Shown here: positions 12,529 through 35,966 of the stretch, piece by piece | Position numbering within the stretch: position 1 is the stretch's first letter | How the letters are laid out: each line of letters opens with the position of its first letter | Assembly: GCA_031282735.1 (NCBI GenBank) | Contig: JAITDE010000018.1 | Location: 30,057-94,056, forward strand | DNA from: Oscillospiraceae bacterium | GTDB lineage: Bacteria > Bacillota > Clostridia > Oscillospirales > Acutalibacteraceae | DNA length: 64,000 nt | Direction of reading: 5' to 3' | The notes under the pieces: model-generated | The model's input: only the letters and a program-made list of their open reading frames with translations | What the model was told of the DNA's origin: nothing | Databases searched by the model: none | Translations under genes and position numbers: made by a program

Positions 12529-12559
12529 GCAAACGCCCCCTTTTGCGATGATACATAGT

Positions 12560-15892: not shown

Positions 15893-16247
15893 TGGTGGAG
15901 ATGGCGGTAATTGAAACCGCGTCCGAAAATCGATTCACCAAGGTTTCTACGAGCGTATCCCGATGTTTGGAATTCCCTTCACGCACCGCCAACGGGCAGG
16001 CTGTGCGCTACGGTAGCCCTGTTTATTCATGACGCGCCGCAAGACGACGAACGCATGCACGTGCACTGCTGAATGACGCACCATCCCAAGCCGCAGTACT
16101 CTCGGGGGGTACGCAAGCCGCTAATTAAGCAGCTTGGAGTTGATAATTATCTGTGTCGTTTATTTCTAAACTGCGGCTTTTATAGCGGGTCCGCGCCGCT
16201 GCTCGCTTCCTTGATTGCACAATCCCCGTCGAAATCCTTTCATCCCC
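15893..16247 (-). ncRNA. ssrA: tmRNA (SsrA)
   Basis: Minus strand begins GGGGATGAAAGGATTTCGACGGGG and ends GGACGCGGTTTCAATTACCGCCATCTCCACCA (tRNA-Ala-like acceptor/T-arm). The internal tag frame ends ...DTDNYQLQAA-TAA. Lies adjacent to smpB. Confidence 0.92.
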
Positions 16248-20630: not shown

Positions 20631-20706
20631 TGGCAGGGGCAGAAGGACTTGAACCCTCGACACGCGGTTTTGGAGACCGCTGCTCTACCAACTGAGCTAT
20701 ACCCCT
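20631..20706 (-). tRNA. tRNA-Trp (anticodon CCA)
   Basis: Hand-folded: AGGGGTA/TA/GCTC-AGTTGGTA-GAGC/A/GCGGT-CTCCAAA-ACCGC/GTGTC/GAGGG-TTCAAGT-CCTTC/TGCCCCT/G/CCA. 76 nt. Confidence 0.9.
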
Positions 20707-20894: not shown

Positions 20895-21137
20895 TTACAA
20901 TAAATCCTCCAGCACATCGAGTAAATGGACAGGCGAGAGCTGGATGCGGTTGAATTTGATCGCTAGCGTTTCGACTTTCCTGCGATTGACGGAAACGTCT
21001 GGCGCAAAGCGAACGGGTTTGCCATTGAACATAGCGATCAAGCCGTAGGTGTCGTATGTGCCAACATCAGGATTGTGTCCCTTTGTCATAACGACGGCAT
21101 ATTGGATACTGGTTTGCAGTGCTTTTGGACGTAACAT
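20895..21137 (-). CDS. Small hypothetical protein (80 aa)
   Basis: ORF directly downstream of the GRE gene. It resembles small clostridial proteins of the DUF6514 type from memory only (unverified). Confidence 0.5.
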   Translation of the reverse strand: MLRPKALQTSIQYAVVMTKGHNPDVGTYDTYGLIAMFNGKPVRFAPDVSVNRRKVETLAIKFNRIQLSPVHLLDVLEDLL

Positions 21138-21251
21138 GCTGTGCAGTCCTCCTCTTCATAGTTGTTGCATCCAATATTAAAGAGTTGCGACGCAAAAAAA
21201 AACACCCGAAAGGGTGTTTTTTACAGAATATGTGTTTTTTTATATCGGTAA

Positions 21252-23660
21252 TCAAATTTGATAATCCGCAGCCCAGCCGTGTTGGGTGCGAGCGATGATG
21301 TCGTCTTGTAAATCGCGCGTCAACTGCGTGAAATACGCGGAATACCCGGCGATCCGCACAAGCAAATCGCGGTGATTTTCGGGATCGTTCTGCGCGTCGT
21401 ACAATGTTTTTTGCTCCAGCACGTTGAATTGTATATGCCAGAGCCGCAAATCACGCCATGACTCGATGAACGCCTCAAGTTTTTCGGTGCCGGATTCCCC
21501 CGCAACGCACGCGGGGCTAAGCTTGATGTTGAGCAGACGTGACGCGCGTTCGCGCCGCCCTTGGTTTTTGCTGCTGAAATTGGAAAGCAACACGGCCGTC
21601 GGACCGTTGATGTCCGCGCCCTGCGAGGCACTGCTGCCGTCGCTGAGCGGCGTGAACGCGCGGCGACCGTTCGGCGTTGCGCCGACGACCTTGCCGAACG
21701 GCACATGGCTGGTGAACGGCACCAAACGCAAATCCAAATGCACGCCCAATTCGTGCGAATACCGCGCCGTGTAATCGATCGCGTGGCGATCGAGGAGTTG
21801 CGCGATGGTGTCGGCGTAATCGTCGTCATTGCCGTATTTTGGCGCATGGATCAGCGCTTGCCGCAGGTCTTCAAAGCCGTCAAAATCGGCGCGCAGGGCG
21901 GCTTTTAGCTCGTCGAGCGAAAATAGCTTTTCTTCAAAAATCACTTTTTTGATTGCCGCCAAGCTGTCAACCACAGTTGCGTAGCCGATATATTCAAAAT
22001 AACCCAAATCAATGCCGCAGGGGATGTGCGGTTGGTGGAGATCCACCAAATTTTCGCGGCAGAGCTTGTGTAAAATACTGCCCAGCGGCGTTGCAAAATG
22101 CCGCGCCCGCAGACGGATGATGTGATATTGCTGTTGAAACGCGTGGCGCAGAAAATAGGTTTGTTGCTGCAGAAACGCCTGCAAAAAAGCGTCGTAATCA
22201 GCAAAATCGTCTCCCAAATCCAAACCGATTTTTTCATCGCCGTATTTCCGCATCGTCCCGCCGAAGAGCGTTATTTCGAGCGCGGCGGCAAAGTTGATGT
22301 AGGCGCATGGGGATGTGAACGTGTCGCGGTTCGGCATACGGCATTCCGAACAGCCCGATACGGCGTAATCAAGCGCTTCATCGTATTTTGCGCCTTTTGC
22401 GAGCAGAAGCGGGACCACCTCCTCGTCGTTGATGAGTTTCGGGAATCCGCCGCCGGCTTTGATTGTCTCCGCCACTTCGCGCAGGTAACGCTTCGGGCTG
22501 AGGGTGTGTATACGCGCCGCCAAATCGGGATAATGCAAGGGGAAATCCCGCTTGCTCTTGAGCAATAAATAGGTCAATTCGTTTGTCGCGTCGCGCCCCT
22601 CGGGTGTCTGCCCGCCGATGGTCACCGCCTCCCAATGCGCGTAGCCCTCGTTGAACGCGCCGCCCGTTTCGCTCAAATAAAGGTCGATAAACTGCGCCAT
22701 TTGTACCCATAGGCATTCAAACAACTCCTGCGCCTGCGCCGCCGTGATCGTGCCGTTTGCAATATCCCGCTCATAAAACGGTCGGAGGAATTGATCCATC
22801 CTGCCGTTGGAGATCACTGTTCCCGTCTTTTGTTCGATCCTTGAAAACATTGCAACAAACCATTGGCTTTGAACCGCTTCGCGGAAATCCCGCGCGGGAT
22901 AGGCGGGCACGTGCCTGCAAATTCGGGCAATTTGCCGCAGTTCCGTTTTTCGGATTGCGTCTTTTTCTTTGCCCGCAAGTTCCTCGGCGAGGTCGGCATA
23001 GCGGTTAGCCCACAAGATAATCGCGTCGCCCGCGAGCAGCAAGGCTTCGATGAACGGTCGTTTTTCGCTTTGATCCACAGGACTGTCCGGGTCAAGGGCG
23101 TTCAGCCGCGCAAAGAGTTCCGCCTGTATGCCTGTTAACCCTTTTTGCAGAACAATTTCGTAGTCGTGTACCCATTGGATGGACGAACGGAAAGAACTTG
23201 TTTCGTTGACGATAAAGCGCGAGCTGAGATCCGTGTTGTATGTCAGTTTTACGGTTTCGGGCGATAGGGCTTGCGCAAGGGCCTCATGGTAGGTTTTTCC
23301 CTGCCAATACGGCGCGATATCGCGCTGAATCGCAAGCGCGTCCGCTGGTGCGATATCAAAGGGCGAATAAGCGCGTTCGGGCAATTTTGCAACCGCGTCC
23401 CCCAGCACGTTGCCGTCCAATTCGGGATAGAGTATGCCGTAACGTCCCGGTTTTGCGCTTGCGCGCCCAACGATCAGCTGATCTTCATCAATTGAAATGC
23501 TTGCGTTTTGCGCATAACGCAAGAGCGCTTTCGCCCAGCGAAGAGGCAACGCCTGCCCCTCGGTTTGTTTGAACGATTGTGTAAAATACAAGCTCCGTTC
23601 AATGTCGATTGTCGGTTTTTGGTCTTGGATTTTTTGCAGGAGCACTTTTGCGCGGCTCAT
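21252..23660 (-). CDS. Glycyl radical enzyme, PFL2/1,2-eliminase-like (802 aa), substrate unknown
   Basis: C-terminal glycyl loop LVRIAGYSAYFTQLTRDLQDDIIARTQH. Thiyl loop VSGCSECRMPN (G-C-x-E, not the Cys-Cys of true PFL). Length is typical of HypD/IslA/GD-type enzymes. The ATG overlaps the upstream stop (ATGA). Confidence 0.92.
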   Translation of the reverse strand: MSRAKVLLQKIQDQKPTIDIERSLYFTQSFKQTEGQALPLRWAKALLRYAQNASISIDEDQLIVGRASAKPGRYGILYPELDGNVLGDAVAKLPERAYSPFDIAPADALAIQRDIAPYWQGKTYHEALAQALSPETVKLTYNTDLSSRFIVNETSSFRSSIQWVHDYEIVLQKGLTGIQAELFARLNALDPDSPVDQSEKRPFIEALLLAGDAIILWANRYADLAEELAGKEKDAIRKTELRQIARICRHVPAYPARDFREAVQSQWFVAMFSRIEQKTGTVISNGRMDQFLRPFYERDIANGTITAAQAQELFECLWVQMAQFIDLYLSETGGAFNEGYAHWEAVTIGGQTPEGRDATNELTYLLLKSKRDFPLHYPDLAARIHTLSPKRYLREVAETIKAGGGFPKLINDEEVVPLLLAKGAKYDEALDYAVSGCSECRMPNRDTFTSPCAYINFAAALEITLFGGTMRKYGDEKIGLDLGDDFADYDAFLQAFLQQQTYFLRHAFQQQYHIIRLRARHFATPLGSILHKLCRENLVDLHQPHIPCGIDLGYFEYIGYATVVDSLAAIKKVIFEEKLFSLDELKAALRADFDGFEDLRQALIHAPKYGNDDDYADTIAQLLDRHAIDYTARYSHELGVHLDLRLVPFTSHVPFGKVVGATPNGRRAFTPLSDGSSASQGADINGPTAVLLSNFSSKNQGRRERASRLLNIKLSPACVAGESGTEKLEAFIESWRDLRLWHIQFNVLEQKTLYDAQNDPENHRDLLVRIAGYSAYFTQLTRDLQDDIIARTQHGWAADYQI

Positions 23661-24961
23661 CCCTCCACCTCCTGATCAATAATGGAAAGCACGTCGTCCA
23701 GCACCTCAAACGCGCCGCGCAGTTCCGCTTCAGTGATAATCAGCGGCGGCGTGATGTTGATGTTGTTTTCGCGCCCGTATGTTGAAAATCCGCGTTCGCG
23801 CAGCAGTTTGAAGACGCGCGGCATGATTGTGTTCGGCTGACCGTAGGGCGCGATCGGCTCTTTTTTCGCGCGGTTTTTCACCAGTTCAACCGCCGAAAAC
23901 AAACCGATATAGCGCACGTCGCCGACGCAGGGATGTTTGCTTTTTTGTTCTTCGAGCAACGCGCCCAAGAGCTTGCCGCGCGCGGCGGTTTGCGCAAAAA
24001 TCGCGTTGTCTTCGTAATATTGCAGTGTCGCAAGCCCCGCCGCGCAGGCGAGCGCGTGCCCCGAATAGGTCAATCCAAATTGAAACACCCTGTCCTGATA
24101 AAAACGCGCGACCGCGTCCGAAACAATCACGCCGCCCAGCGGCACGTAACCGCAGGTGATCCCCTTCGCAAAACTGACAATATCCGGCTCAATATCCCAG
24201 TGCCGGAATCCGAACGCTTTGCCCGTGCGTCCAAATCCCGCCATGACTTCATCGCAGACAAGCAGAATGCCATATTTTTTTGTCAATGCGCGCAATCCTT
24301 GCAAATAGCCGTCGGGCGGAATGATAATCCCGTTTGCGCCCGTGACGCTCTCGACGAATACCGCCGCAATCTCTTTTGGGTTCTCGTGTTGTATCTGCTC
24401 CTCAAGCTCAGCAAGATAGCTCTCCGCCGTTCCGCCGCGCCGATAGACATAGGGATCAAAAAACTTGAGGAAGCCGTTCGCGGCGGGGTTTTCGAGCGCA
24501 AAACGGCGGGGATCGCCCGAGATGTTCCCGCTGCCCAAGGTCGAGCCGTGGTAACTGCGGTAACGCGAGAGGATTTTTGAACGCCCCGTGACGGTACGCG
24601 CCATGTTCAGCGCGGCCTCGTTGGCATCGCTTCCGCCGCAGGTGAAGAACACCTTCGCAAAGTGTCCGCCCGCCAATTGCACCAGCTTTTGCGCCAAGCG
24701 GCTTTTCGTCTCAAAGGCGTGTGCCGGCGCGACATAGGCGAAATCGTCCAACTGCGCTTTGATTGCCTCTTTGATTGGATCAATCGAAAAGCCTAGGTTC
24801 GAACAGCTCAGCTGGCATGACATGTCATAATATCGTTTGCCGTCATAATCATAAAAGTATATTCCCTCGCCGCGGGCGATTGCAAGCGGTTCTGTGTTCC
24901 CGGGTAACCATGGATGCTGGTTGTATTGCTGATCCAAAAGCAATATTTCTTCTTTTTTCAT
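23657..24961 (-). CDS. Class III (omega-) aminotransferase, amine:pyruvate type
   Basis: 434 aa from ATG 24961 (ATGA overlap with the MFS stop). Motifs: GGSDANEAA, DEVMAGFGRTG, and the PLP-Lys motif SFAKGITCGYVPLGG typical of taurine/beta-alanine:pyruvate-type omega-transaminases. Confidence 0.88.
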   Translation of the reverse strand: MKKEEILLLDQQYNQHPWLPGNTEPLAIARGEGIYFYDYDGKRYYDMSCQLSCSNLGFSIDPIKEAIKAQLDDFAYVAPAHAFETKSRLAQKLVQLAGGHFAKVFFTCGGSDANEAALNMARTVTGRSKILSRYRSYHGSTLGSGNISGDPRRFALENPAANGFLKFFDPYVYRRGGTAESYLAELEEQIQHENPKEIAAVFVESVTGANGIIIPPDGYLQGLRALTKKYGILLVCDEVMAGFGRTGKAFGFRHWDIEPDIVSFAKGITCGYVPLGGVIVSDAVARFYQDRVFQFGLTYSGHALACAAGLATLQYYEDNAIFAQTAARGKLLGALLEEQKSKHPCVGDVRYIGLFSAVELVKNRAKKEPIAPYGQPNTIMPRVFKLLRERGFSTYGRENNINITPPLIITEAELRGAFEVLDDVLSIIDQEVEG

Positions 24962-26172
24962 GCCGTCTTTTTCCTTTCTTTGATGAACAGGACGGATAGG
25001 AAGCTCAAACCGAGCGACGCGATGCAGTAGGGAAACAAAATCTTGAGCCCCCAGCGCGTATGGTCGCTCAAAAAGCCGCTGGCAATGGGTGTGATCACCA
25101 TTGCAAGGGTCATCACCATGTTGAATGCGGCCGTTGCGCCGCCAATCTTTTTGCCGTCCGATAGTTCCAGCAAAAACGGATAAAGGTTTGTCAGCGCGGC
25201 GGCGAAACCCGCGCCTGTGAAGAAGAAACACGCGAACATCGCCAATCCCAATCCTTTTTGCAAACTTGCCAGCGCAAACGCCGCCGCCATGATAGCAATC
25301 CCCAGCAACAGCAAGCGTTTTCGCGCAAATCGTTTTGCCAGCTTTGCCGATGGGATGGAAAACAGCACCGCCGCCAACAGCGTCAGCCCCTGCGGCAGGA
25401 CGAATTGCTGCTTGTTCAGACGCAGTATGTCCACGGCGTAATTCGAGAGACTCGACACCAGCCCGTTGTAGGCAACATAAAAGAAGAACACGCCGGCCAG
25501 CAACAATATGCGGTTATTCGTTTGCGCGGAGTCGGTGGTGTTTTGTTCCGCCGTGGTTGCCGCTTGCGCCGTCCACGCGCGCTCTTTGACCGTGAAAAGA
25601 AACGCCGCAATCAACGGCAGCATCAATGCCGCGCTTGCGTAAAAAATGGTATGATACCCATGCGGAGCGGCAAGCGAAATCAACACGATCCCAGCGACCG
25701 TGCAAAGGATACTCACGATATCGGTGATTGCCTGGGCGGTGCGGCGGTGTTCCAAGGGCGTAAAATCGGGCAATATTGCAAGCGACGCGGGGCGCGAAAA
25801 AGCGATGCTCGCAAGCGATCCGCCGAGTAAAATCAAAAACAGCCATTTCGATTGCAATCCGAGCGCAAGTCCCGTGCCGATCCAAAGCAATGCCGCCAGC
25901 ACACCGCCGGCAATTGCGAAGGGCGTGCGCTTCCCCCACCGGGATTTGCTTTTGTCGCTCAGCCAGCCGAACAGCGGCAGCAAAAACAGCCCGAGGATAT
26001 TATCCAGCGCCATGACGATGCCTTTGAGTGTGAAGTTCAGAGCCAAGCCGCCGTCCTCAGGTGAGGCGGTTAGAATCACGGGCAAGCCGTTGTCCAGCAC
26101 GGCGTTGAAAATCGATATCCACGCATAGGGCAGCGAGAGCAACAGTGTGCGTTTGACTGAAAATTTTTCCAT
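24958..26172 (-). CDS. MFS transporter, GPH/MFSD2-like
   Basis: 12-TM-like hydrophobicity. Loop 2-3 motif GWLSDKSKSRWGKRTPF is characteristic of glycoside-pentoside-hexuronide-type symporters. ATG at 26172 (MEKFSVKRTLL...). Confidence 0.82.
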   Translation of the reverse strand: MEKFSVKRTLLLSLPYAWISIFNAVLDNGLPVILTASPEDGGLALNFTLKGIVMALDNILGLFLLPLFGWLSDKSKSRWGKRTPFAIAGGVLAALLWIGTGLALGLQSKWLFLILLGGSLASIAFSRPASLAILPDFTPLEHRRTAQAITDIVSILCTVAGIVLISLAAPHGYHTIFYASAALMLPLIAAFLFTVKERAWTAQAATTAEQNTTDSAQTNNRILLLAGVFFFYVAYNGLVSSLSNYAVDILRLNKQQFVLPQGLTLLAAVLFSIPSAKLAKRFARKRLLLLGIAIMAAAFALASLQKGLGLAMFACFFFTGAGFAAALTNLYPFLLELSDGKKIGGATAAFNMVMTLAMVITPIASGFLSDHTRWGLKILFPYCIASLGLSFLSVLFIKERKKTA

Positions 26173-26222
26173 AAAGATATTTCTCTCCCAATCGAATGAA
26201 TGATTTTTCTTAAATCCAGCGT

Positions 26223-27827
26223 CTAGCGTCCGGCACCGTAAAGGTTCCCTTCTAAAATATATGGCGCAATTTTGAAAATGGCGCGTGACAATAAGCACAG
26301 CAAGGGATTGTTGTTCAAATAGGCAAACGAAAGTTTGCACAAATTTGCGGCGATGCTTTCAAACGTCGGCGTGCTGCGCGGTGTGATTTTGACGCGCTTG
26401 CCGCGAAATTGAATGAGAAACGTGTTGCTCACGCAAGTTTGAATGGGTCTAATGTTGATGTAAAGTGTGTTTTCGTCGCGCCATTGCGCCCATGCGTAGG
26501 TATCAAACCGAAAGCCCGCCAACGCAACGCTTCCAACGCGGTATTGACCGTCCAAACCCAATGGAATCGTGTTTTTCCAATCGCCCTCCCGCCATGAAAA
26601 CCGCGCTTCGCCGTCCGAAAAATCAAATTGCAGGTCGGTCATGTTGCCCGCGCGATCAATGCACATTTGGTTGACCGTCATGGGTAGCAAGCCCTGCGGA
26701 TAACCCGCAACATTGAGCAAAAGCTGTTTGCGCAGTTTGATTGTTTTGCCGTTCAGCCAAGCCTCCCGCTTTGGAACGCGCGGGGATATCGGCGGCACCG
26801 GAAAACTGAGCGATTGCTCCCGTTCGCGCAAAGCCGCCAATACCTGCGGATCTGACGGACGATCGCCGTCAAAAAAGCCGACGGGGAAGTGCGGATAGAT
26901 CAAATCGAACGGCTTTTGCTCATCGGCATCCGCGCCGAAATAGACAAATACGGCGTCATAATCGCGCATAACGAAACCGTGCTGGCAGAACATACCACGC
27001 GCCGCAAACGCGTTTTGCTGTTGGCACATCCAAAATTGATAGCCGTAGCCTTTGTTGCTGTCGGCTTTGAGATTGTCCGCGTTGCCGCTTTGCTTGCGCG
27101 TCGCTTCCCGCGCCCACCAAGCGGGAATGATCTGTTTGCCCTGCCATCTGCCGTCGTCGAGATAACACTGCATGAACTTCGCGCTGTCTTCCAGTTTCCA
27201 GATCACGCCCCAACCGCCGCCGGGGTTTCCGTCGTGATCGGTTTCGGTGAACGGCACATCAATGCCAAGCGGTTCAAACAGGCGCGGTGTGAGATATTCC
27301 CACATGGTCTGCCCCGTCAGCTTGCGAATGAGCACACTGAACAGATAGGCGCATTCGTTTGTATAGTGGAAGATATTCCCCGGCGGATCGCGCAGCGGAC
27401 TTTGCAGATAGTCTTTGATCCAATCGGGAGAGCTATTTTGATGAAAAACGTCGAACGCCAAACCTGAAGTCATTGTTATCACGTGCCGCAGGGTGATCAT
27501 ATCCCATAATGCCGCTTTTTTGGCCGGTCTGTATTCAGGAAAATATTTGCCCAATTTGTCGTCGAGGGAAAACAAGCCATCATCCGCGGCAAAGCCCGCC
27601 GCCGTGGCGGCAATACTTTTGCTGAACGAGTAGATGCTGTGCGGGATTTCGGCGGCATACGGTTTGCGGTATTGCTCAAACACGATCTTGCCGTGGCGCA
27701 GGATCATCAATCCGTGGTGTTCAAACCGGTTGCGGTCGAACGTATCGAGTAAATCCAAAATATGCCGCGCGGACACGCCGACTTCTTCCGGTGTTTGCGC
27801 GCGCGGCAAGCGGCTAGTGTTATTCAA
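26223..27827 (-). CDS. Beta-lactamase-fold serine hydrolase (esterase/amidase) with ~200-aa C-terminal extra domain
   Basis: SxxK (YSFSKSIAA) and YxN (HYTNE) motifs. The TTG start overlaps the upstream stop by 8 nt. Ends with a normal TAG stop. Confidence 0.82.
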   Translation of the reverse strand: MNNTSRLPRAQTPEEVGVSARHILDLLDTFDRNRFEHHGLMILRHGKIVFEQYRKPYAAEIPHSIYSFSKSIAATAAGFAADDGLFSLDDKLGKYFPEYRPAKKAALWDMITLRHVITMTSGLAFDVFHQNSSPDWIKDYLQSPLRDPPGNIFHYTNECAYLFSVLIRKLTGQTMWEYLTPRLFEPLGIDVPFTETDHDGNPGGGWGVIWKLEDSAKFMQCYLDDGRWQGKQIIPAWWAREATRKQSGNADNLKADSNKGYGYQFWMCQQQNAFAARGMFCQHGFVMRDYDAVFVYFGADADEQKPFDLIYPHFPVGFFDGDRPSDPQVLAALREREQSLSFPVPPISPRVPKREAWLNGKTIKLRKQLLLNVAGYPQGLLPMTVNQMCIDRAGNMTDLQFDFSDGEARFSWREGDWKNTIPLGLDGQYRVGSVALAGFRFDTYAWAQWRDENTLYINIRPIQTCVSNTFLIQFRGKRVKITPRSTPTFESIAANLCKLSFAYLNNNPLLCLLSRAIFKIAPYILEGNLYGAGR

Positions 27828-29160
27828 ATGAAAACACCCCGCCGTCTGTCATAAAACGACTGTATGCGCCCTTGATCAATTGATTCACGACGGATGGGTC
27901 GTTGACGGCGGCGCGCATGCCATATAAGGCGGCGCTGCCCTGCGCAAATTGTTCCGGATGCGCTTTGACCTCGGCGACGGCATCCCGCAAGTCGTTCAAA
28001 AAATCATCCGCGACATCCGCGTGGGCAGGTGTTACCATGAAGTGCAGATTTGCGGGATTCACCTGTTGGTCGATCACCCAACCTTTGCGCTCCAGCGCGT
28101 CGGCGAGCGCATGCACGTTGAGGATATCGCTGGCAAAAGCGAAAATGCCCGCAGGGGGATCTCCGAGCACGTGCAGTTCGGGGATTGCCCGAATGCCCGC
28201 AAGCAGTTTTTGGGTTGTTTCCAATACGCCTTGGGTGATGCGCAGGTAGCCGTCGCGCCCAATACAGCGCAACGCCGCCCAAGCCGACGCAATTGCCCCG
28301 CCCGGCCGCGTGCCTGTCGCGCTGGGCGAAATGAATAACCCGCCCGGCCAATCGCCGTAGGCAAAATATTGATACTCCCGCAGTGCGGCATCACGATAAA
28401 GCAGTGCCGAAACGCCCTTTGCGGCGAAAGCATATTTGTGCAAATCGGCTGAAATACTACTGACGCCAGGCAGTTCAAAATCGAACGCGGGCACGTCGCC
28501 GCCCAACGCGCGGATAAACGGCAGTGTAAATCCACCGAGGCAGGCATCCACATGCAGGCGCAAATGGTATTTGAGCGCAAGCTGAGATAGCTCTTCAATC
28601 GGATCAATCACGCCGTGCGGATATTGCGGCGCGGAACCGACGAGCAAAATCGTGTTGGGTGTGATCAATTGTTCGATGGCGTTCACGTCCGCGCGGTAGT
28701 CGTCGGCAAGGGGGGCGTGGATCAGCCTCAATCCAAAGTAGTGCGCGGCCTTTTCAAACGCCGCGTGGACGCTAATGGGCACAATGACCTCAGGCTGTGC
28801 AATTTCGGGTTTCAGTGCGCGCGCTTCATCGCGGTATGTTTTGAGCGCCATCAAGATGCTCTCGCTGCCGCCGCTTGTGAGCGCTCCAACCACAGACGCA
28901 TCGCCGTGGAAAAGATCCGCCGTCATGGAAAGCGTTTCGGTCTCAAGCCGTTTGAGGCTTTGGAACACGAAAGGATTCAATCCGTTGGCGTGAAAATATT
29001 TCAAGTATGCTTCTTCCGCCAATTGGGTGATTTCGTCCCCCGCGTAGTACACCAAGCTCCAAGTTTTGCCGCCTTTCCAGTCGCCGTCCTGCTTTTTGTA
29101 GTCGTCCAGTGCTTGCAGGACTTCCGCGCGTGGCAAACCTTCCTGCGGAAATTTCGTCAT
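27820..29160 (-). CDS. Fold-type I PLP enzyme, sphingosine-1-phosphate-lyase-like / group II decarboxylase family
   Basis: PLP-Lys block SISADLHKYAFAAKGVSALLYRD closely resembles the S1P-lyase consensus (SISADxHKYGFAPKG.S.LLY). No N-terminal TM. ATG 29160 (or GTG 29163) lies behind GGAG. Confidence 0.8.
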   Translation of the reverse strand: MTKFPQEGLPRAEVLQALDDYKKQDGDWKGGKTWSLVYYAGDEITQLAEEAYLKYFHANGLNPFVFQSLKRLETETLSMTADLFHGDASVVGALTSGGSESILMALKTYRDEARALKPEIAQPEVIVPISVHAAFEKAAHYFGLRLIHAPLADDYRADVNAIEQLITPNTILLVGSAPQYPHGVIDPIEELSQLALKYHLRLHVDACLGGFTLPFIRALGGDVPAFDFELPGVSSISADLHKYAFAAKGVSALLYRDAALREYQYFAYGDWPGGLFISPSATGTRPGGAIASAWAALRCIGRDGYLRITQGVLETTQKLLAGIRAIPELHVLGDPPAGIFAFASDILNVHALADALERKGWVIDQQVNPANLHFMVTPAHADVADDFLNDLRDAVAEVKAHPEQFAQGSAALYGMRAAVNDPSVVNQLIKGAYSRFMTDGGVFSFE

Positions 29161-29220
29161 CACGATCGCTCCATTCTAAATCATTCATAATCATTCATAA
29201 ACCGTGCGCACGATGCGCGG

Positions 29221-29241
29221 GGAAATAATCATATTATTTCC
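29221..29241. promoter_or_regulatory. Perfect palindrome in the leader of the GRE operon (candidate operator or RNA hairpin)
   Basis: GGAAATAAT-CAT-ATTATTTCC, 7 nt downstream of the -10 box. Confidence 0.45.
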
Positions 29242-29247
29242 ATATGA

Positions 29248-29276
29248 ATTATATGATAACGCATTGCGCTTGTCAA
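29248..29276 (-). promoter_or_regulatory. Promoter of the 5-gene GRE operon
   Basis: Minus strand has TTGACA, a 17-nt spacer and TATAAT (full consensus). Confidence 0.65.
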
Positions 29277-29348: not shown

Positions 29349-29377
29349 TTGACAGCACCGCGTGAACGCGCTATAAT
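29349..29377 (+). promoter_or_regulatory. Promoter of the ABC/MetY/sulfur-carrier operon
   Basis: TTGACA, a 17-nt spacer and TATAAT (full consensus), 20-30 nt upstream of the first start codon. Confidence 0.65.
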
Positions 29378-29406
29378 CATATTAAATCTGTAGGAATATG
29401 GTATTT

Positions 29407-30282
29407 ATGCAAAAGACGATTTCAAAGATGATTGCGTTGCTTTCGGCACTGTTGTTTTTGTCCGCCTGCGGCGCGTCGGGAGTTTCAACGCCCAAGACCG
29501 CACAAGCGCAAACGCAAGCGAAAACGCCGCGGCGCGTGGTTTCGCTCTATGCCTCCTACAGCGCGGCATGGCTGGCGGCGGGCGGATCCCTTGCGGGCGT
29601 TACGGACGACGCGGTCAACGAACGCCATTTGGATGTTGGTGGCGCCGCGTTGGTGGGCAGTCTCACGCGCCCGAGTTTGGAAAAAATCCTAGCCCTTGAG
29701 CCCGATTTAATTCTCGCGTCGCCCGATGTTCCTGGGCAATTGGCGTTACAAGCGCAATTTTTGAATCTGCAAATTGACGCGCGCTATTACGGTTGCGACA
29801 CGTTTGAGGCATACAAGGTGATGATGGAAGATTTTTTGTCGTCCACGGGACGCGACGATCTGCGCGAAAAGCTGATCGGCACACCCGAAGCGCAGATCAA
29901 ACAGGCAAAAGTCCTCGCGCAGGGCAAAACGCCGCGCAGCGTGTTGTTATTGCGGGCAAATTCCTCCGGCGTGCAAGTCAAAAGCGAGGGTACGGTCGCC
30001 GCAGAGATTTTGCGGGATTTGGGCGCGGTCAATATTGCGCAAAAAGAGCCGTCGCTGTTGCGGGAGCTATCGCTTGAAATCATCCTGCGGGAAAATCCGC
30101 AGTTCATTTTTGTTGTGCCGCAGGGTATCGACGATGCGCAAACGGCGATTGACGCGCTCGATCCGTCGTGGAGAAGCCTGACGGGGCAATTTATCGCACT
30201 GCCGAAAGATCTTTATCATTACAAGCCGAACGAACGCTGGGGGGAAGCCTATGCACAGCTTGCGGCAATCCTTTACGATTAA
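29407..30282 (+). CDS. ABC transporter substrate-binding lipoprotein, Fe-siderophore/heme/cobalamin (cluster A, PF01497-like) type
   Basis: Lipobox LLFLSAC and typical class III SBP layout. ATG 29407 has better RBS spacing than 29398. Confidence 0.8.
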   Translation: MQKTISKMIALLSALLFLSACGASGVSTPKTAQAQTQAKTPRRVVSLYASYSAAWLAAGGSLAGVTDDAVNERHLDVGGAALVGSLTRPSLEKILALEPDLILASPDVPGQLALQAQFLNLQIDARYYGCDTFEAYKVMMEDFLSSTGRDDLREKLIGTPEAQIKQAKVLAQGKTPRSVLLLRANSSGVQVKSEGTVAAEILRDLGAVNIAQKEPSLLRELSLEIILRENPQFIFVVPQGIDDAQTAIDALDPSWRSLTGQFIALPKDLYHYKPNERWGEAYAQLAAILYD

Positions 30283-31246
30283 GTTCGGCGCACTGGCGGC
30301 GGCGTTGATTGCCGCGATTTTTCTGGGATTTTCGTTGGGTGCGGTGCGTCTTCCCGCGTGGGACAGCCCCATTTTTTTGCAGGTGCGTTTGCCGCGCGTT
30401 TGCGCGTGTATTTTATGCGGGGCGGCGTTGGCGGCGGCGGGATTGCTTAGCCAAACATTGCTGGGCAATCCGCTTGCGAGCCCTGCTTTGTTGGGCGTGA
30501 ACGCGGGCGCGGGTTTGGCGATTGCGGGCGCGGGTGTGCTTGCGTTGGCGGCAAAACATCTGCCATTGGTTGCGTTCGCCGGCGCGGTGGTCGCCTCGTT
30601 GCTGATTTTTTGTTTGAGCCTGCGCACCAAACGCAGCGCGTTGCTGTTGGCCGGCGCGGCAATCTTGAGCATGTTTTCGGCGGCGATCGACGCGGTGCAC
30701 ACGCTTTTTCCCGCGGCGTTGCCAAGTTACAGCGCGTTCATGCTGGGCAACTTCAGTTCGGTCAGCTGGCGACGCATCACGCCGTCATATCTTTTTGTGG
30801 TCGCGGGGATCATAACGGCTTTTTTGCTTTGCGGGCAGTTGGATGTTTTCGCGCTTGGCGATGAAACGGCACGATCCTTGGGGCAACGCGTGCATGTTGT
30901 TCGCGCGGCGGCGTTGCTTGCGGGGGCGGTTCTTGCGGGCGCGGCGGTGAGCATCTGCGGTCTTTTGGGCTTTGTGGGGCTAATGAGCCCGCACTTGGCG
31001 CGGATGATTTTCCGCACGGCAAAGCACAGTGTTCTGTTGCCCGCGTGCTTGCTGTTGGGTGCGGCGCTTGTCACGTTTTGCGACACCATGAGCCGCACGT
31101 TGTTCGCGCCCTACGAACTCCCCGCAGGCATTGCGCTCAGTCTTATCGGCGGTCCGTTTTTTCTTTATTTGCTTCTCCACAAACGCCCTGCTTTTTCTTC
31201 AGAAAAATCTACTTTTTCTGAAGAAAAAGTAGCAAAAAGACTTTAG
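30251..31246 (+). CDS. FecCD-family ABC permease; last ~20 codons and the stop are supplied by a repeat element
   Basis: LRLPRV..., GAALAAAG and GGPFFLYLLL are FecCD/BtuC hallmarks. The tail PAFSSEKSTFSEEKVAKRL-TAG lies in hairpin repeat copy A. Confidence 0.88.
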   Translation: MHSLRQSFTIKFGALAAALIAAIFLGFSLGAVRLPAWDSPIFLQVRLPRVCACILCGAALAAAGLLSQTLLGNPLASPALLGVNAGAGLAIAGAGVLALAAKHLPLVAFAGAVVASLLIFCLSLRTKRSALLLAGAAILSMFSAAIDAVHTLFPAALPSYSAFMLGNFSSVSWRRITPSYLFVVAGIITAFLLCGQLDVFALGDETARSLGQRVHVVRAAALLAGAVLAGAAVSICGLLGFVGLMSPHLARMIFRTAKHSVLLPACLLLGAALVTFCDTMSRTLFAPYELPAGIALSLIGGPFFLYLLLHKRPAFSSEKSTFSEEKVAKRL

Positions 31247-31256
31247 CCGCTTCGCG
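31197..31256 (+). repeat. Hairpin repeat family, copy A
   Basis: CTTCAGAAAAATCTACTTTTTCTGAAGAAAAAGTAGCAAAAAGACTTTAGCCGCTTCGCG. Core 11-bp stem CTACTTTTTCT/AGAAAAAGTAG. Confidence 0.85.
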
Positions 31257-31299
31257 TATCCGGATTCATCCGGCAAAAATTTTCTTTGGAGGAAACATC

Positions 31300-32013
31300 G
31301 TGCTCTCGTTTTGTCATGTTGATTTTGCATATGATAAACCCGTTCTGCACGACGTTTCGTTTGCGTTGCGCACCGGAATGACATGCGTACTTTCGCCCAA
31401 CGCGGGCGGCAAGAGCACACTGCTCAAACTCGCGGCCGGATTGCTGAAACCGCAAAGCGGTCAAATCCTGCCGCAATACAAGTCTCCGAAAATCCGTGCG
31501 CAAAACGTTGCCTTGCTCCCGCAGTGGAATCGCGTGCCGGAACTGACGGTTTATGAACTCGCGGCCCACGGACGCTACCCGCATCTTTCGGCGGGGCACG
31601 TGCTCCGCGCGCGCGACAAGGAGATCATCGGCGCGGCGTTGGAACAAACGGGCGCAATCGCGTTCCTCCACAGGAAGCTGGGGGAAATTTCAGGCGGACA
31701 GCGGCAAAAAGCCGCGCTCGCCATGGCGCTGGCGCAGGAAACCCCCTTGCTGTTGCTCGATGAACCGACGACATACCTTGATATCAAAGTGCAGTTGGAA
31801 TTGATGGAACTGTTGCAAAGCTTGCCGAACAAAAAGATATTGATGGCAATCCACGATATTCCCCTCGCGCTGCGGTTTTGCGATTATGCCATGGTGTTGC
31901 GTGACGGGCGGTTGATATTTGACGGCGCGTGTGCGGATCTTCCCGCAAGCGGCGCGTTGGAATCGGCATTCGGTGTCACAAATTTGGAAAGGAGCTCGGT
32001 GCATGCGTTTTAA
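31300..32013 (+). CDS. ABC transporter ATP-binding protein (FecE/BtuD type)
   Basis: Walker A SPNAGGKSTLL, signature ISGGQRQ, Walker B LLLLDEP. GTG start behind GGAGG. Confidence 0.9.
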   Translation: MLSFCHVDFAYDKPVLHDVSFALRTGMTCVLSPNAGGKSTLLKLAAGLLKPQSGQILPQYKSPKIRAQNVALLPQWNRVPELTVYELAAHGRYPHLSAGHVLRARDKEIIGAALEQTGAIAFLHRKLGEISGGQRQKAALAMALAQETPLLLLDEPTTYLDIKVQLELMELLQSLPNKKILMAIHDIPLALRFCDYAMVLRDGRLIFDGACADLPASGALESAFGVTNLERSSVHAF

Positions 32014-33160
32014 TACACGGCTTTTGCATGGCGACGCGCAAACGAATCCCTATGGAGCGACACTGCCGCCGATTGTGCAAAGTTCCGCCTTTGCGCACGA
32101 GAGCGCGGAACAGCTCGAAAAAATATTTGAGAACAAAGCGCCCGGATTTGCCTATTCGCGCATCGGTAATCCAACCGTCGCGGCTTTTGAAAAACGGATG
32201 TCCGTGCTTGAGGGCGGCATTGACGCGATCGCCTGTGCCAGTGGGATGGCGGCGGTCAGCATGGCACTGTTGGCGTTCCTGCGAAGCGGCGACGAAATCA
32301 TAGCCGGCAGTGGATTGTTCGGCGGCACACTGGATCTGTTGGGCAATTTTGCGGCGTTTGGTATCAAGACTACGTTTCTTGAAAGCGTCACGGCCGAAGC
32401 TGTTCACTCGGCGGTCACGCCGAACACCCGCGTTATTTTTGCGGAATACATCGGCAATCCCAAATTGGATGTAACGAATATCCGCGCCGTTGCGCAAGCC
32501 GCCGACGCGCACGGCATTGCGTTGGTCGTCGACAGCACGACGGCGACGCCCGCGCTGATTAGACCTTTGGAGGAGGGTGCGCATGTGGTTGTGCACAGCA
32601 GTTCAAAATACATCAACGGCGGCGGCAGCGGCATTTCGGGCGTGATCATCCCGGGTGCGCGTGTTCCGGCGACGCCCGCGCTGGAAGCGTTTCAAAAATA
32701 CGGCAAATTTGCCTATGTGCAGCGGATACGACAAGATATTTGGCGCAACTTCGGTCCTTGCCTCGCGCCCGAAAACGCCTATCTCAACTGTTTGGGGCTT
32801 GAAACGCTTGGATTGCGTATGGAGCGACTTTGCGCCAACGCGGCGGAACTCGCGGCGTATCTGGAACAGCAGGGTTTGGAGGTGCGGTATCCCGCGATCG
32901 GTGCGATTCTAACCGTGCGGGCGGGGACGAAAGCGCGGGCGTTCGCGCTCATCAACGCGCTGCGCTATGCGAAAATCGCGTCGAACATCGGCGATGTGCG
33001 CACCTTGGTGATCCATCCGTCCAGCACGATTTATCTCCACAGCAGCGAAGCGCAAAAACGCGCGGCGGGCGTATATGACGACCTCATCCGCGTGAGCGTC
33101 GGCATTGAAGACATTGCGGATCTCAAAGAGGATTGGAGGCGAGCGATTGATGCCACCTGA
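32003..33160 (+). CDS. metY: O-acetylhomoserine sulfhydrylase-family PLP enzyme (MetY/CysD type)
   Basis: FNTRLLHGD..., YSRIGNPT and the PLP-Lys region HSSSKYINGGG. The ATG overlaps the ATPase gene end by 11 nt. Confidence 0.88.
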   Translation: MRFNTRLLHGDAQTNPYGATLPPIVQSSAFAHESAEQLEKIFENKAPGFAYSRIGNPTVAAFEKRMSVLEGGIDAIACASGMAAVSMALLAFLRSGDEIIAGSGLFGGTLDLLGNFAAFGIKTTFLESVTAEAVHSAVTPNTRVIFAEYIGNPKLDVTNIRAVAQAADAHGIALVVDSTTATPALIRPLEEGAHVVVHSSSKYINGGGSGISGVIIPGARVPATPALEAFQKYGKFAYVQRIRQDIWRNFGPCLAPENAYLNCLGLETLGLRMERLCANAAELAAYLEQQGLEVRYPAIGAILTVRAGTKARAFALINALRYAKIASNIGDVRTLVIHPSSTIYLHSSEAQKRAAGVYDDLIRVSVGIEDIADLKEDWRRAIDAT

Positions 33161-34010
33161 TTACAAGGCACTCAAAAACGGCGGATTCATGCGCCAAGTG
33201 CAAAAAAATTGTTTCAGTTTGCGGCTCAAGGTCGTGGGCGGAAATTTAACGGCGGAACAGCTTTGCGTGATTGCCGAAATCAGCCGCAAATACGGGCGAG
33301 GCACGGTTCACCTAACTTCACGGCAGGGCGTGGAAATTCCGTTTATCAAGTTGGATGATGTGGAACGTGTTCGGACGGAATTGGCGGAGGGCGGTGTGGA
33401 TACAGGTGTTTGCGGTCCGCGTGTGCGCACGGTGACGGCTTGCCAAGGGAGGGCGATTTGCCCTGGCGGATGCATTGAGACATATCCGCTGGCGGAAGCG
33501 ATCAGCGAACGCTATTTTGGGCGCGCATTGCCGCATAAATTCAAGTTCGGCGTCGTCGGATGCGTGAACAACTGCCTCAAAGCGGAGGAAAACGACATCG
33601 GTATCAAAGGCGGTTATGCCGTATCTTGGCTACCCGAAAAATGCACGCTGTGCGGCGTTTGTGTGCCCGCTTGCCGCGAAAACGCGATTGCAATCGACGG
33701 CGGCGGTCTGTCAATGGACGATACGCGATGCAATCACTGCGGGCGATGCGTGAAGAGTTGTCCATTTGACGCTTGGAGCGGAGAACCTGTATATTTGCTC
33801 AGTTTCGGCGGCACGTTCGGCAATTTGATTGCAAAGGGCGAAGCGATTTTGCCCATCCTGCACACCGAAGAAGAGATTTTCCGCGCGAGCGACGCCGCCT
33901 TGGCTTTTTTTGATCAATATGGAAAACCCGGCGAACGTTTTCGTGTCTCGATTGAACGCGAAGGTTGGGCAAGCTTTCAAAAATATATAACGGAGGCAGT
34001 GTATGGCTGA
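33150..34010 (+). CDS. Small sulfite/nitrite-reductase-like protein with inserted 2x[4Fe-4S] ferredoxin domain
   Basis: Siroheme-[4Fe-4S] Cys pattern (CGPRVRTVTAC...CPGGC..., GCVNNC) plus CTLCGVCVPAC and CNHCGRCVKSC. 286 aa. Confidence 0.75.
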   Translation: MPPDYKALKNGGFMRQVQKNCFSLRLKVVGGNLTAEQLCVIAEISRKYGRGTVHLTSRQGVEIPFIKLDDVERVRTELAEGGVDTGVCGPRVRTVTACQGRAICPGGCIETYPLAEAISERYFGRALPHKFKFGVVGCVNNCLKAEENDIGIKGGYAVSWLPEKCTLCGVCVPACRENAIAIDGGGLSMDDTRCNHCGRCVKSCPFDAWSGEPVYLLSFGGTFGNLIAKGEAILPILHTEEEIFRASDAALAFFDQYGKPGERFRVSIEREGWASFQKYITEAVYG

Positions 34011-34233
34011 ATTTGTGGACATCACGGATGTCGTTTGTCCCGTGACATTCGTCAAAGTTAAAGTTGCGCTGGAGGAGCTTGACGATGGGCAGGAATTGCA
34101 AATCAGGCTCAACGGCGGCGAACCCGTGCAAAACGTGCCGCGCAGCATCAAGGAAGAGGGGCATCAGGTGCTCAAGCTGACGCAAAATGAGGACGGCACT
34201 TACAACCTGCTTGTGCGGAAGGAGGGTGATTAA
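34003..34233 (+). CDS. TusA/SirA-family sulfurtransferase
   Basis: 76 aa with the conserved Cys-Pro motif (DVVCPVTFVKVKVAL). Confidence 0.8.
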   Translation: MAEFVDITDVVCPVTFVKVKVALEELDDGQELQIRLNGGEPVQNVPRSIKEEGHQVLKLTQNEDGTYNLLVRKEGD

Positions 34234-34234
34234 T

Positions 34235-34531
34235 ATGCCGGCAATCACGGCTCAAACGCCCGTTCTGCTTGATTTTTACAGCGAGAGCTGCGCCCCGTGC
34301 AGGCGGCTCAAACCCGTATTGGCGGCATTGGCGCAAATGTTTGAGGGGCGCGTGGAAATCCAAAAAATCAACGCGGGCAATCATCCCGAACTGGCGGAGG
34401 CATACGACGTGCAAACCCTGCCGACCCTGCTTTTGCTCCATTGCGGCAAAGAACTCTGGCGCGGCACGGGATTCATCACGCAGGAAATACTTGACGCGAA
34501 GCTCAATCAAATATTGGAGGGAATGCAATGA
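34235..34531 (+). CDS. Thioredoxin-family protein
   Basis: LLDFYSESCAPCRRLKP (CxxC), ~98 aa from ATG 34235. Confidence 0.85.
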   Translation: MPAITAQTPVLLDFYSESCAPCRRLKPVLAALAQMFEGRVEIQKINAGNHPELAEAYDVQTLPTLLLLHCGKELWRGTGFITQEILDAKLNQILEGMQ

Positions 34532-34752
34532 AAATTGTGGTAACAGGCATCGAAAAACAAGCGGCGGAGGGACTGACAATCGCCCAATTGATTGCGGATG
34601 AAAATGTGGAAAGCCCCGCGTATGTGACCGTTTCGCTCAACGATACGTTCGTTGAACAGGGTGCGTTCCCGCACACCGTGCTCCATGAGGGAGACAGTGT
34701 GGAATTTTTATATTTCATGGGCGGAGGGCGACCGTATGCCATTCACCAATGA
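34528..34752 (+). CDS. ThiS/MoaD-like sulfur-carrier protein with C-terminal extension after GGG
   Basis: 74 aa beta-grasp-size protein ending ...VEFLYFMGGG-RPYAIHQ. The ATG overlaps the trx stop (ATGA). Confidence 0.75.
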   Translation: MKIVVTGIEKQAAEGLTIAQLIADENVESPAYVTVSLNDTFVEQGAFPHTVLHEGDSVEFLYFMGGGRPYAIHQ

Positions 34753-35545: not shown

Positions 35546-35966
35546 ATTGCGGCGGATCGATTTTGACGCCATGGTGGCATACGCGCAAGCCCAGTTGCCG
35601 AATGAGGCTTGCGGATTGATTGGTGGGATAATCTGCGGAAAAACAAAGTACGTCAAAAAAATCTATCAATTGACGAACTTAGATCACAGCCCTGAACATT
35701 TTTCCCTTGATCCCAAAGAACAGTTGATCGCGCTCAAAGACGCAAGGAGCGGCGGCTTGCAATTGATCGGCAACTGGCACAGTCACCCATCCACGCCCGC
35801 GCGCCCGTCGGAGGAGGACATTCGGCTGGCGTTTGATCCAACGGCAAGCTACCTCATTTTGTCGCTGGCGGCGGAAAAACCCACGCTGAAAAGCTTTTGC
35901 ATCACCGGAGGAATCGCGGCGGCGGAAGATTTGGTGATTGACAATGAATATCGGACGTTAGGATAG
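35535..35966 (+). CDS. JAMM/MPN+ metalloprotease (Mec+/HcyD/QbsD type)
   Basis: EACG...GNWHSHPSTPARPSEEDI matches the E...HxHx7Sx2D JAMM motif. Proposed GTG start at 35535. Confidence 0.85.
   Translation: MRIELRRIDFDAMVAYAQAQLPNEACGLIGGIICGKTKYVKKIYQLTNLDHSPEHFSLDPKEQLIALKDARSGGLQLIGNWHSHPSTPARPSEEDIRLAFDPTASYLILSLAAEKPTLKSFCITGGIAAAEDLVIDNEYRTLG

Follow-up and report, generated by a model that had tools for sequence, protein, structure and literature searches.

Several described systems come close to the locus reported here. A gene cluster of Clostridium butyricum, reportedly described by Xing and co-workers in 2019, is said to combine a taurine aminotransferase, a sulfoacetaldehyde reductase and IseG/IseH, and to serve sulfur assimilation from taurine. 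Likewise, a thiocarboxylate-based synthesis of homocysteine in Wolinella succinogenes, which runs via MetY, HcyS, HcyF, HcyD and a sulfite reductase, was reportedly worked out by Krishnamoorthy and Begley in 2011. Here we analysed a 64-kb stretch (the window) of the 111-kb contig JAITDE010000018.1 from an Oscillospiraceae bacterium. It carries an operon of five genes, which encode a sphingosine-1-phosphate (S1P) lyase-like pyridoxal 5′-phosphate (PLP) enzyme, a beta-lactamase-fold serine hydrolase, a major facilitator superfamily (MFS) transporter, an orthologue of taurine:2-oxoglutarate aminotransferase (Toa) and a glycyl radical enzyme (GRE). We propose that this operon joins a taurine-utilizing core to a feeder that would obtain taurine from sulfonolipids, in anaerobic gut Oscillospiraceae, and we put the probability of this explanation as a whole at about 0.5. 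The GRE, Toa and the taurine-to-sulfite logic are already known, whereas the feeder of lyase-like enzyme, hydrolase and MFS transporter, and the fusion to sulfite-to-homocysteine genes, are not. The operon has the following features.

27820-29163, minus strand: S1P-lyase-like PLP enzyme, 447 amino acids (Pfam Pyridoxal_deC)
26223-27827, minus strand: beta-lactamase-fold serine hydrolase, 534 amino acids (Pfam Beta-lactamase)
24958-26172, minus strand: MFS transporter, 404 amino acids (Pfam MFS_1, 7e-31; MFS_2, 2e-18)
23657-24961, minus strand: taurine:2-oxoglutarate aminotransferase orthologue, 434 amino acids (Pfam Aminotran_3)
21252-23660, minus strand: GRE, 802 amino acids (Pfam PFL-like and Gly_radical)
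29248-29276, minus strand: sigma-70-type operon promoter, TTGACA-17-TATAAT, matching 12/12 consensus positions
21190-21220, minus strand: intrinsic terminator, a hairpin plus U-run directly after the GRE stop codon (sequence reading and folding)

The families of the open reading frames (ORFs) were assigned by a Pfam scan, and the assignments that an earlier reading of the bare sequence (the original prediction) had anticipated for the five proteins were borne out. The MFS length takes the ATG of MEKFSV as the start codon, the longest ORF extending further upstream, and that of the aminotransferase begins at MKKEEIL. We could also confirm the five co-directional ORFs, their coordinates and overlaps and the full-consensus promoter: five intact ORFs lie on the minus strand, bounded by this promoter and the hairpin terminator. 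The lyase-like and hydrolase genes overlap by 8 nt (27820/27827), and the MFS/aminotransferase and aminotransferase/GRE junctions are ATGA overlaps (24958-24961 and 23657-23660 respectively); the hydrolase and MFS genes do not overlap, being separated by a gap of 50 nt that contains a GGGAGAG ribosome-binding site. A leader of ∼85 nt (29164-29247, minus strand) lies between the promoter and the first start codon. An Rfam scan of this leader for a riboswitch or other RNA returned no family at gathering score. The leader holds a tandem direct repeat, TTATGAATGA TTATGAATGA TT, which could serve as an operator or act as regulatory RNA. The terminator hairpin folds at -14.4 kcal/mol (z = -3.4; equalled by no shuffle); a consensus terminator scan of the window did not list it.

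The GRE contains both the glycyl loop RIAGYSAYF and the thiyl loop G-C-S-E-C, motifs that had been recognized before (the latter as G-C-S-E). Among solved structures, it scored highest with IseG of Desulfovibrio vulgaris (5YMR, 1142 bits) and IslA of Bilophila wadsworthia (7KQ3, 1120 bits), followed by HpsG (6LON, 1030 bits) and, far lower, CutC (514 bits); the identities are 63% to IseG, 61% to IslA and 57% to HpsG. Since IseG shares 64% identity with HpsG, overall identity cannot settle the substrate of the GRE, while the pocket can. Published work on IslA assigns the binding of the sulfonate to the triad R189/Q193/R678, further contacts to I192, T312 and F682, an essential role to V680, and catalysis to C468/E470 and G805. 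All of these residues (R189, I192, Q193, T312, C468, E470, R678, V680, F682 and G805 in IslA numbering) are kept in the GRE, and its 120 nearest relatives in the database share the pocket and catalytic residues throughout. Of the positions that discriminate IslA from HpsG (188, 191, 192, 196, 310-312, 365-368 and 682), nearly all carry the IslA/IseG residue in the GRE, i.e. F188, S191, I192, H196, T/G/T at 310-312, G/A at 365/366, N368 and F682, whereas HpsG has Y188, A191, L192, P196, A310/S311/A312, N365/E366, Q368 and I682. An HpsG-type pocket was not found in the GRE. C471 and P482 are invariant in the Firmicutes branch of GREs that includes the window protein.

In the automatic annotation, the GRE scores 1358 bits on the NCBIfam equivalog NF048011, ‘(2S)-3-sulfopropanediol dehydratase’ (cut-off 1000). 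However, IslA (1479 bits) and IseG (1548 bits) score as high on this model as HpsG does (1490 bits), so that it marks the C-S lyase group as a whole and not one activity. We therefore rejected the name HpsG that NCBIfam would suggest for the GRE, and protein names derived automatically from NF048011 may be wrong for isethionate lyases in general. Collectively, its sequence identifies the GRE as a predicted isethionate sulfite-lyase of the IslA/IseG type. The original prediction, which had taken it for an orphan and possibly a new clade, did not hold in this respect, as the protein falls in the characterized C-S lyase group and its pocket matches; the comparison with IslA that had been proposed at the same time found all the sulfonate-binding Arg and Gln residues kept.

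The aminotransferase points to the same C2 sulfonate chemistry. Its closest solved relative is the taurine:2-oxoglutarate aminotransferase 6JIX (488 bits; next structure, 268 bits), it scores 482 bits on NCBIfam PRK06062, above the cut-off of 472, and by overall score it is a class III aminotransferase nearest to characterized Toa. Clusters orthologous to the window operon additionally encode an iron-type alcohol dehydrogenase (Fe-ADH), the best solved relative of which is 6JKO (232 bits; next structure, 134 bits). The paper that describes 6JKO identifies it as TauF, the sulfoacetaldehyde reductase of Bifidobacterium kashiwanohense. With Toa, a TauF-like ADH and a GRE of the IslA type, conversion of taurine via sulfoacetaldehyde and isethionate to sulfite and acetaldehyde is fully encoded across the gene set: the Toa-type aminotransferase would turn taurine into sulfoacetaldehyde, the TauF-type Fe-ADH, which lies outside the window, would reduce this to isethionate, and the IslA/IseG-type GRE, with an activase also encoded outside the window, would release sulfite and acetaldehyde. 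That the core of the operon serves the assimilation of sulfur (and nitrogen) from taurine by known chemistry is, in our view, highly probable. An omega-transaminase that makes an aldehyde from an amine, with taurine- or isethionate-like intermediates, had been foreseen, and is now strongly supported by the 6JIX match and the GRE pocket; the reduction step that had been expected elsewhere in the genome has its candidate in the TauF-like Fe-ADH of the orthologous clusters.

The window copy encodes only the first and the last step of the taurine-to-sulfite chain. No window ORF of ≥ 100 amino acids has the N-terminal CxxxCxxC motif of an activase, and tblastn of the window with the activases and the Fe-ADH of the orthologous clusters gave nothing at E < 0.7. 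Neither is there a remnant of an activase 3′ of the GRE gene, where only the terminator, a DUF6514 ORF and tRNA-Trp are found; the adjacent activase that typifies IslA and IseG is thus missing from the window. A PduA query (approximate sequence) had no tblastn match to bacterial microcompartment (BMC) shell genes in the window, and no gene called in the orthologous loci showed a shell domain, i.e. there is no sign of a glycyl-radical microcompartment near the GRE. The earlier statement that the 64 kb contain neither an activase signature nor BMC shell genes was hence upheld by motif scan and tblastn. Directly downstream of the operon lie the small DUF6514 ORF (20895-21137, minus strand) and the tRNA-Trp gene (20631-20706, minus strand), and further on a tmRNA gene and tRNA-Arg (15893-16247, minus strand).

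We next consider the gene set in other genomes, where at least nine further contigs carry it, in three arrangements and mostly in Oscillospiraceae. The isolate names Pc512, Hs463, Cf509 and Kf353 suggest an origin from termite or cockroach guts, which is how we read them. Loci in other contigs are given L-numbers, and the pairs L001/L006, L003/L009 and L005/L008 each count as one species. The colinear order lyase-like/hydrolase/MFS/Toa/GRE is found in seven species-level genomes (L001/L006, L003/L009, L005/L008, L007, L011, L012 and L013), and the string occurs also in L173-L175. An activase gene directly follows the GRE gene in L001, L003, L012, L086 and L173, while none follows it in the window, L005/L008, L007, L011 or L013. 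As the orthologous clusters have their activase right after the GRE, the ‘orphan’ state of the window copy is a local variant of gene order. L001, L010 and L013 have the TauF-like ADH gene upstream in divergent orientation, and L173 has it downstream.

The most complete copy is L173, which forms a single co-directional string that begins with sirohaem synthesis genes, MetY, a NIR_SIR sulfite reductase, TusA, ThiS, ThiF and JAB, and continues with lyase-like enzyme, hydrolase, MFS transporter, Toa, GRE, activase and Fe-ADH. The more distant locus L086 (45-65% identity) has GRE, activase, ADH, Toa, hydrolase, lyase-like enzyme and sulfite reductase in altered order and orientation; a homologue of the MFS transporter was not detected there. 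The Toa homologue of this locus (8826-10165, minus strand) is split into two overlapping ORFs of 341 and 122 amino acids, which suggests a frameshift or sequencing error. In none of these clusters does the lyase-like gene appear without the hydrolase gene, or the reverse. That a gene set stays linked through three gene orders is good evidence for a joint function of its parts. The original prediction was to be given up if the GRE fell into a characterized clade and, at the same time, the five-gene context was not conserved in relatives; the neighbourhood is conserved, and the two do not coincide.

Divergently from the taurine operon, a second operon would lead from sulfite to homocysteine. It has the following features.

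29349-29377, plus strand: divergent promoter of the sulfite-to-homocysteine operon, 12/12 consensus positions
29398-32013, plus strand: ATP-binding cassette (ABC) transporter of a Peripla_BP_2 binding protein (Pfam), a FecCD permease and an ATPase
32003-33160, plus strand: O-acetylhomoserine sulfhydrylase-like protein of MetY type (Pfam Cys_Met_Meta_PP; best NCBIfam match OAH/OAS sulfhydrylase, below cut-off)
33105-34010, plus strand: small sulfite reductase (Pfam NIR_SIR, NIR_SIR_ferr and Fer4; best NCBIfam match sulfite reductase subunit C, below cut-off)
34003-35966, plus strand: TusA-like protein, thioredoxin, ThiS-like protein (ending in GGG), ThiF (Pfam) and JAB/JAMM protein, called by motif reading except for ThiF

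In the window, the TusA-like protein, thioredoxin, ThiS-like protein and JAB were recognized by motif reading; in L166 and L173, Pfam called the same string. At the level of domains, the operon unites MetY, sulfite reductase, ThiS-like protein, ThiF and JAB, which is the gene content of thiocarboxylate-dependent homocysteine synthesis of the Wolinella type; it would reduce sulfite and build homocysteine through the thiocarboxylate of a sulfur carrier. A sulfite reductase homologue stands beside the cluster in L011, L013, L014, L086 and L173. The same three ABC genes were found by tblastn beside the cluster in L003/L009 (L003 2283-4261) and L086 (329-3149), i.e. in three arrangements. This FecCD/Peripla_BP_2 transporter belongs to a siderophore/B12-type family, and L086 has it but no detected MFS transporter; it could be the real importer. 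Among other loci of the GRE clade, L167 consists of an NMT1 sulfonate-type ABC importer, GRE and activase alone, while L166 has the NMT1 importer, GRE and activase followed by the MetY-to-JAB string. These contexts indicate that assimilating the sulfur of isethionate is the role of the GRE clade as a whole. In the window cluster, the isethionate importer would then have given way to a module for the intracellular production of taurine.

Such a module begins with the PLP enzyme. Searched against solved structures, it scored 418 bits with StSPL, 365 with human SGPL1 and 343 with yeast Dpl1p, compared with 115 for the decarboxylase MfnA, and its identity is 48% to StSPL and 41-48% over the full length across S1P lyases. 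It lacks the N-terminal extension of ∼65 residues found in StSPL. The PLP-binding and catalytic residues are kept (StSPL numbering): K311, which forms the Schiff base, H310, D274, H201, G168, K317, Y105 and N126. The residues expected of S1P lyase (EC 4.1.2.27) as a fold-type I, group II PLP enzyme are thus in place, and by these comparisons the protein is a true homologue of S1P lyases and not of decarboxylases. In contrast, the head-group site differs from StSPL by A103L, H129N, D131F and S353T. According to published tables, the changed residues bind the phosphate of the substrate, and S353 contacts both the PLP phosphate and a bound phosphate ion. The phosphate site of S1P lyases is therefore altered (L at 103, N at 129 and T at 353), though Y105, N126 and K317 are kept.

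The changes at positions 103, 129 and 353 recur in a large group of proteins. Among the 80 nearest homologues in genomes (Bacillota, Chloroflexota, Myxococcota, Desulfobacterota and Bacteriovoracaceae), L103 and the absence of His129 are universal, and T353 is nearly so. All six verified lyases of the published table carry A or T at position 103, against L in 81/81 members of the subfamily that we examined; at position 353, verified lyases have S and nearly all subfamily members T. We had also considered His129 as a diagnostic of phosphate versus sulfonate, and downgraded it because verified Burkholderia lyases carry Q or R at this position.

Outside the taurine clusters, the neighbours of the lyase-like homologues include TauE/SafE permeases (eight loci), NMT1/TauA-type ABC transporters (nine loci) and MFS_2 transporters (nine loci). 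The TauE/SafE permease genes lie ≤ 2 genes from the lyase-like gene in L028, L029, L045, L050, L060, L062, L072 and L080, which come from Bacteriovoracaceae, Anaerolineae and one Firmicutes metagenome-assembled genome (MAG). In L015-L026 (Ruminiclostridium cellobioparum and related Bacillota MAGs; e.g. L017 5251-16750), the lyase-like gene stands between two NMT1/TauA-type ABC transporters and is followed by a GNAT acetyltransferase gene, and two proteins of ∼410 amino acids with weak radical-SAM matches form the flanks; one ATPase gene of L017 (9108-9913) is apparently split into two ORFs. This arrangement may be another anaerobic sulfonate-handling cluster. In L035 (1808-7343) of an uncultured bacterium, a PRK06062-type (Toa family) aminotransferase gene directly follows the lyase-like gene, with an aldehyde:ferredoxin oxidoreductase alongside on the opposite strand and no GRE. 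Judged from their families, these neighbours would fit an enzyme that makes an amine and an aldehyde.

The second feeder protein, the serine hydrolase, has the motifs SxxK (SFSK) and YxN (YTN), both of which are conserved in its orthologues. On the NCBIfam beta-lactamase models it reached only 20-37 bits against cut-offs of 415-900; given this and its esterase/amidase-like fold, we regard it as a serine hydrolase of the fold and not as a class C beta-lactamase. Its N-terminus has no hydrophobic stretch and no signal peptide, and it is predicted to be a cytoplasmic N-deacylase (amidase/esterase). In an AlphaFold model (predicted local distance difference test score, pLDDT, 89.9; predicted template modelling score, pTM, 0.90), the nearest folds of the N-terminal domain were the Lsa45 esterase, PIB-1, 6-aminohexanoate-dimer hydrolase and family VIII esterases; the C-terminal domain is a run of eight beta-strands, and the two-domain relatives Pab87 and SurE rank lower. 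Close orthologues are confined to the cluster, while homologues of 37-48% identity are common as stand-alone Clostridia genes, the neighbourhoods of which gave no functional clue. A metagenome scan with the hydrolase returned one linked locus (L086) among 80, the others being 27-39% identical and unlinked. The MFS protein carries the GPH-type loop SDxxKxxWGxRxP, which is common to the MFS_2 transporters that are paired with lyase-like genes in Bacilli; a sequence search of solved structures gave no match. We predict that it imports the substrate of the operon.

How these three proteins could supply the core is suggested by capnine, i.e. 2-amino-3-hydroxy-15-methylhexadecane-1-sulfonate. It shares the skeleton of S1P (2-amino-3-hydroxy, with an anionic C1), so that the same cleavage would yield 2-aminoethanesulfonate, which is taurine. 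A passage of PMC9304779 calls capnine a sulfur analogue of S1P. In the proposed mechanism, the MFS transporter would import a sulfonolipid of Bacteroidota, either an N-acyl-capnine (sulfobacin type) or free capnine; the cytoplasmic hydrolase would strip off the N-acyl chain to leave capnine; and the lyase-like enzyme would split capnine between C2 and C3 by a retro-aldol reaction into a fatty aldehyde and taurine, which would enter the core. N-acyl-capnines need an amidase first, and this fits the fold of the hydrolase. The original prediction had sketched much of this pathway, from uptake of an N-acylated amino-sulfonate lipid through deacylation and S1P-lyase-type cleavage to a C2 amine, then transamination, reduction and GRE elimination, with capnine-type sulfonolipids among its candidates; in these outlines it was largely right, although its upstream half stays hypothetical. 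Such a feeder would explain why three extra genes are present, why they are constantly linked to those for taurine and why the head-group site is altered, and we propose it tentatively, at odds that fall just short of even. It is also possible, if somewhat doubtful, that the lyase-like subfamily with L103, N or S at 129 and usually T353 is a large unrecognized group acting on sulfonosphingoid bases like capnine instead of S1P, and that together with the serine amidase it constitutes the first described bacterial catabolism of sulfonolipids, from Bacteroidota lipids via taurine to sulfite or sulfide. In the literature on capnine and sulfonolipids, we found papers on biosynthesis and signalling and no account of catabolism; that on taurine and isethionate use in termite guts gave only Desulfovibrionaceae microcompartment loci, and a 2026 review of GREs does not mention sulfonolipids.

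Several points weigh against this proposal. We infer the substrates of the lyase-like enzyme and the hydrolase from context alone. A cytoplasmic hydrolase demands that a two-chain lipid cross the membrane via an MFS carrier, and the cluster has no conserved gene by which fatty aldehydes would be handled. The family of the hydrolase is a large one of stand-alone enzymes in Clostridia, without a link to lipids, and the fold of the hydrolase indicates an amidase or esterase only, the fold search not revealing a substrate. As Burkholderia S1P lyases do without His129, the residue signature of the lyase-like subfamily is suggestive and not diagnostic, and the 48% identity of the PLP enzyme to StSPL almost equals the 51-53% to distant members of its own subfamily. 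Finally, the window copy has neither activase nor reductase in 64 kb. On this last ground, the operon could be a non-functional or decaying copy that lost both genes; the terminator directly after the GRE and the presence of both genes in the fuller clusters would agree with such a loss. However, none of the five ORFs is broken, their catalytic motifs are conserved and their promoter is perfect, and the four other species that lack an adjacent activase (L005/L008, L007, L011 and L013) show that encoding it elsewhere appears to be common, which makes decay unlikely.

The extra genes could also form parallel feeders, in which the hydrolase would free taurine from amides such as N-acyl-taurines and the PLP enzyme would decarboxylate cysteate or cleave a short compound, for example cysteinolate, into formaldehyde and taurine. 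Insect tissues are rich in free taurine, the nearest folds of the hydrolase act on small or single-chain substrates, and an MFS protein more plausibly carries single-chain molecules or small zwitterions than a two-chain lipid. The S1P-lyase fold moreover lies within the group II decarboxylases, with MfnA and GAD as detectable relatives, and metal-dependent bile salt hydrolases are known to free taurine in genomes with Tpa, SarD and IslA (PMC13081988). What makes this scheme doubtful is the score of the PLP enzyme with a verified lyase (418 bits) as against the nearest decarboxylase (115 bits), the constant pairing of lyase-like and hydrolase genes, which suits sequential steps better, and the L035 neighbours (aminotransferase and aldehyde oxidoreductase), which match amine and aldehyde products. 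Cysteinolate as such was ranked low among substrates of the lyase-like enzyme, because its published route employs different enzymes (a racemase, a dehydrogenase and CuyA) and the compound is described there as predominantly marine. An ordinary S1P or dihydro-S1P lyase, acting on sphingoid phosphates of host, protists or Bacteroidota and loosely co-located with the taurine pathway, would account for the identity to StSPL and the full set of PLP and catalytic residues; some sources name its relatives sphinganine-1-phosphate aldolase, and Q or R at 129 is tolerated in Burkholderia. Yet its product, phosphoethanolamine, would be useless to a Toa-type aminotransferase or an isethionate lyase, and the gene stays linked to taurine genes through three gene orders, has sulfonate-type transporters as recurrent neighbours and belongs to a subfamily set apart from verified lyases by L103 and T353. 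We consider this very unlikely. Even less can be said for a GRE that acts as 2,3-dihydroxypropane-1-sulfonate (DHPS) sulfolyase or dehydratase in an operon for a C3 sulfonate: the NF048011 match, the identity to HpsG and the sulfopropanediol dehydratase name that UniRef gives to a 70%-identical relative are offset by a non-discriminating model, by a pocket with IslA residues where HpsG differs and by partners, Toa and (in relatives) TauF, that are C2 enzymes. This reading is highly improbable.

Elsewhere in the window, a mur/fts cluster for division and cell-wall synthesis apparently spans ∼1746-14629, as judged from the first residues of its ORFs alone. The region 41163-48337 (minus strand) encodes a two-domain class II aldolase, a second class III aminotransferase (496 amino acids), two GFO/IDH/MocA oxidoreductases and a xylose-isomerase-like TIM-barrel protein, and looks like a catabolic set of amino-sugar or inositol type. 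Next to it, an ORF of 2135 amino acids (48304-54711, minus strand), with Listeria-Bacteroides repeats as its sole Pfam match, is probably a giant surface protein.

Sulfonolipids (capnine and sulfobacins) are abundant in the membranes of Bacteroidota, and their biosynthesis was worked out only recently. Published papers link them to signalling and immune effects. If the sulfonolipid feeder is true, the lyase-like enzyme would be the first enzyme, and its gene the first marker, for sulfonolipid turnover; anoxic guts would have a new source of taurine and sulfite, and a large family now annotated as decarboxylases or S1P lyases would be reassigned. Read conservatively, the locus wires an isethionate-lyase pathway to sulfite reductase and thiocarboxylate-dependent homocysteine synthesis, and thus offers a compact and complete route from organosulfonate to methionine in a sulfur-poor habitat.

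Compared with the cluster said to occur in C. butyricum, the window operon uses the same enzyme families to take taurine to sulfite in a fermenting Firmicute, by assimilation and not respiration, and with no microcompartment. Unlike that cluster, which reportedly starts from free taurine, it adds the lyase-like enzyme, the hydrolase and the MFS transporter, and has no local reductase or activase. The GRE is 61-63% identical to IslA of the IslA/IslB pair of Bilophila wadsworthia and IseG of IseG/IseH in Desulfovibrio, with the same contact and catalytic residues. In those hosts, however, sulfite is used for respiration, the activase is adjacent and, in Bilophila, the locus belongs to a microcompartment, whereas the neighbours in the window are assimilatory, without shell genes or a local activase. 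The taurine nitrogen-assimilation cluster of Bifidobacterium kashiwanohense provides the closest solved relatives of both Toa (6JIX) and the TauF-like ADH (6JKO), but there the pathway ends at excreted isethionate, which would here be desulfonated.

With the S1P lyases (StSPL, SGPL1, Dpl1p and Burkholderia S1PL), the lyase-like enzyme shares the fold, the PLP lysine, K317, Y105 and N126 and, as we predict, the retro-aldol chemistry; in contrast to them, it has an altered phosphate site, and its genomic partners are sulfonate genes instead of sphingolipid genes. The divergent operon resembles the route reported for Wolinella in its MetY-like protein, NIR_SIR, ThiS-like protein ending in GGG, ThiF and JAB, and differs from what is said of that system by its coupling to an organosulfonate source of sulfite and by the addition of TusA, thioredoxin and an ABC transporter. 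Finally, the metal-dependent bile salt hydrolases (bioRxiv 2026, PMC13081988) provide a parallel for a hydrolase that frees taurine from a conjugate for pathways of the Tpa/SarD/IslA type. These are metallohydrolases that act on bile acid amidates in the human gut with no lyase step, whereas the window enzyme is a serine hydrolase of beta-lactamase fold, paired with a lyase-like protein that may carry out the step by which taurine is released.

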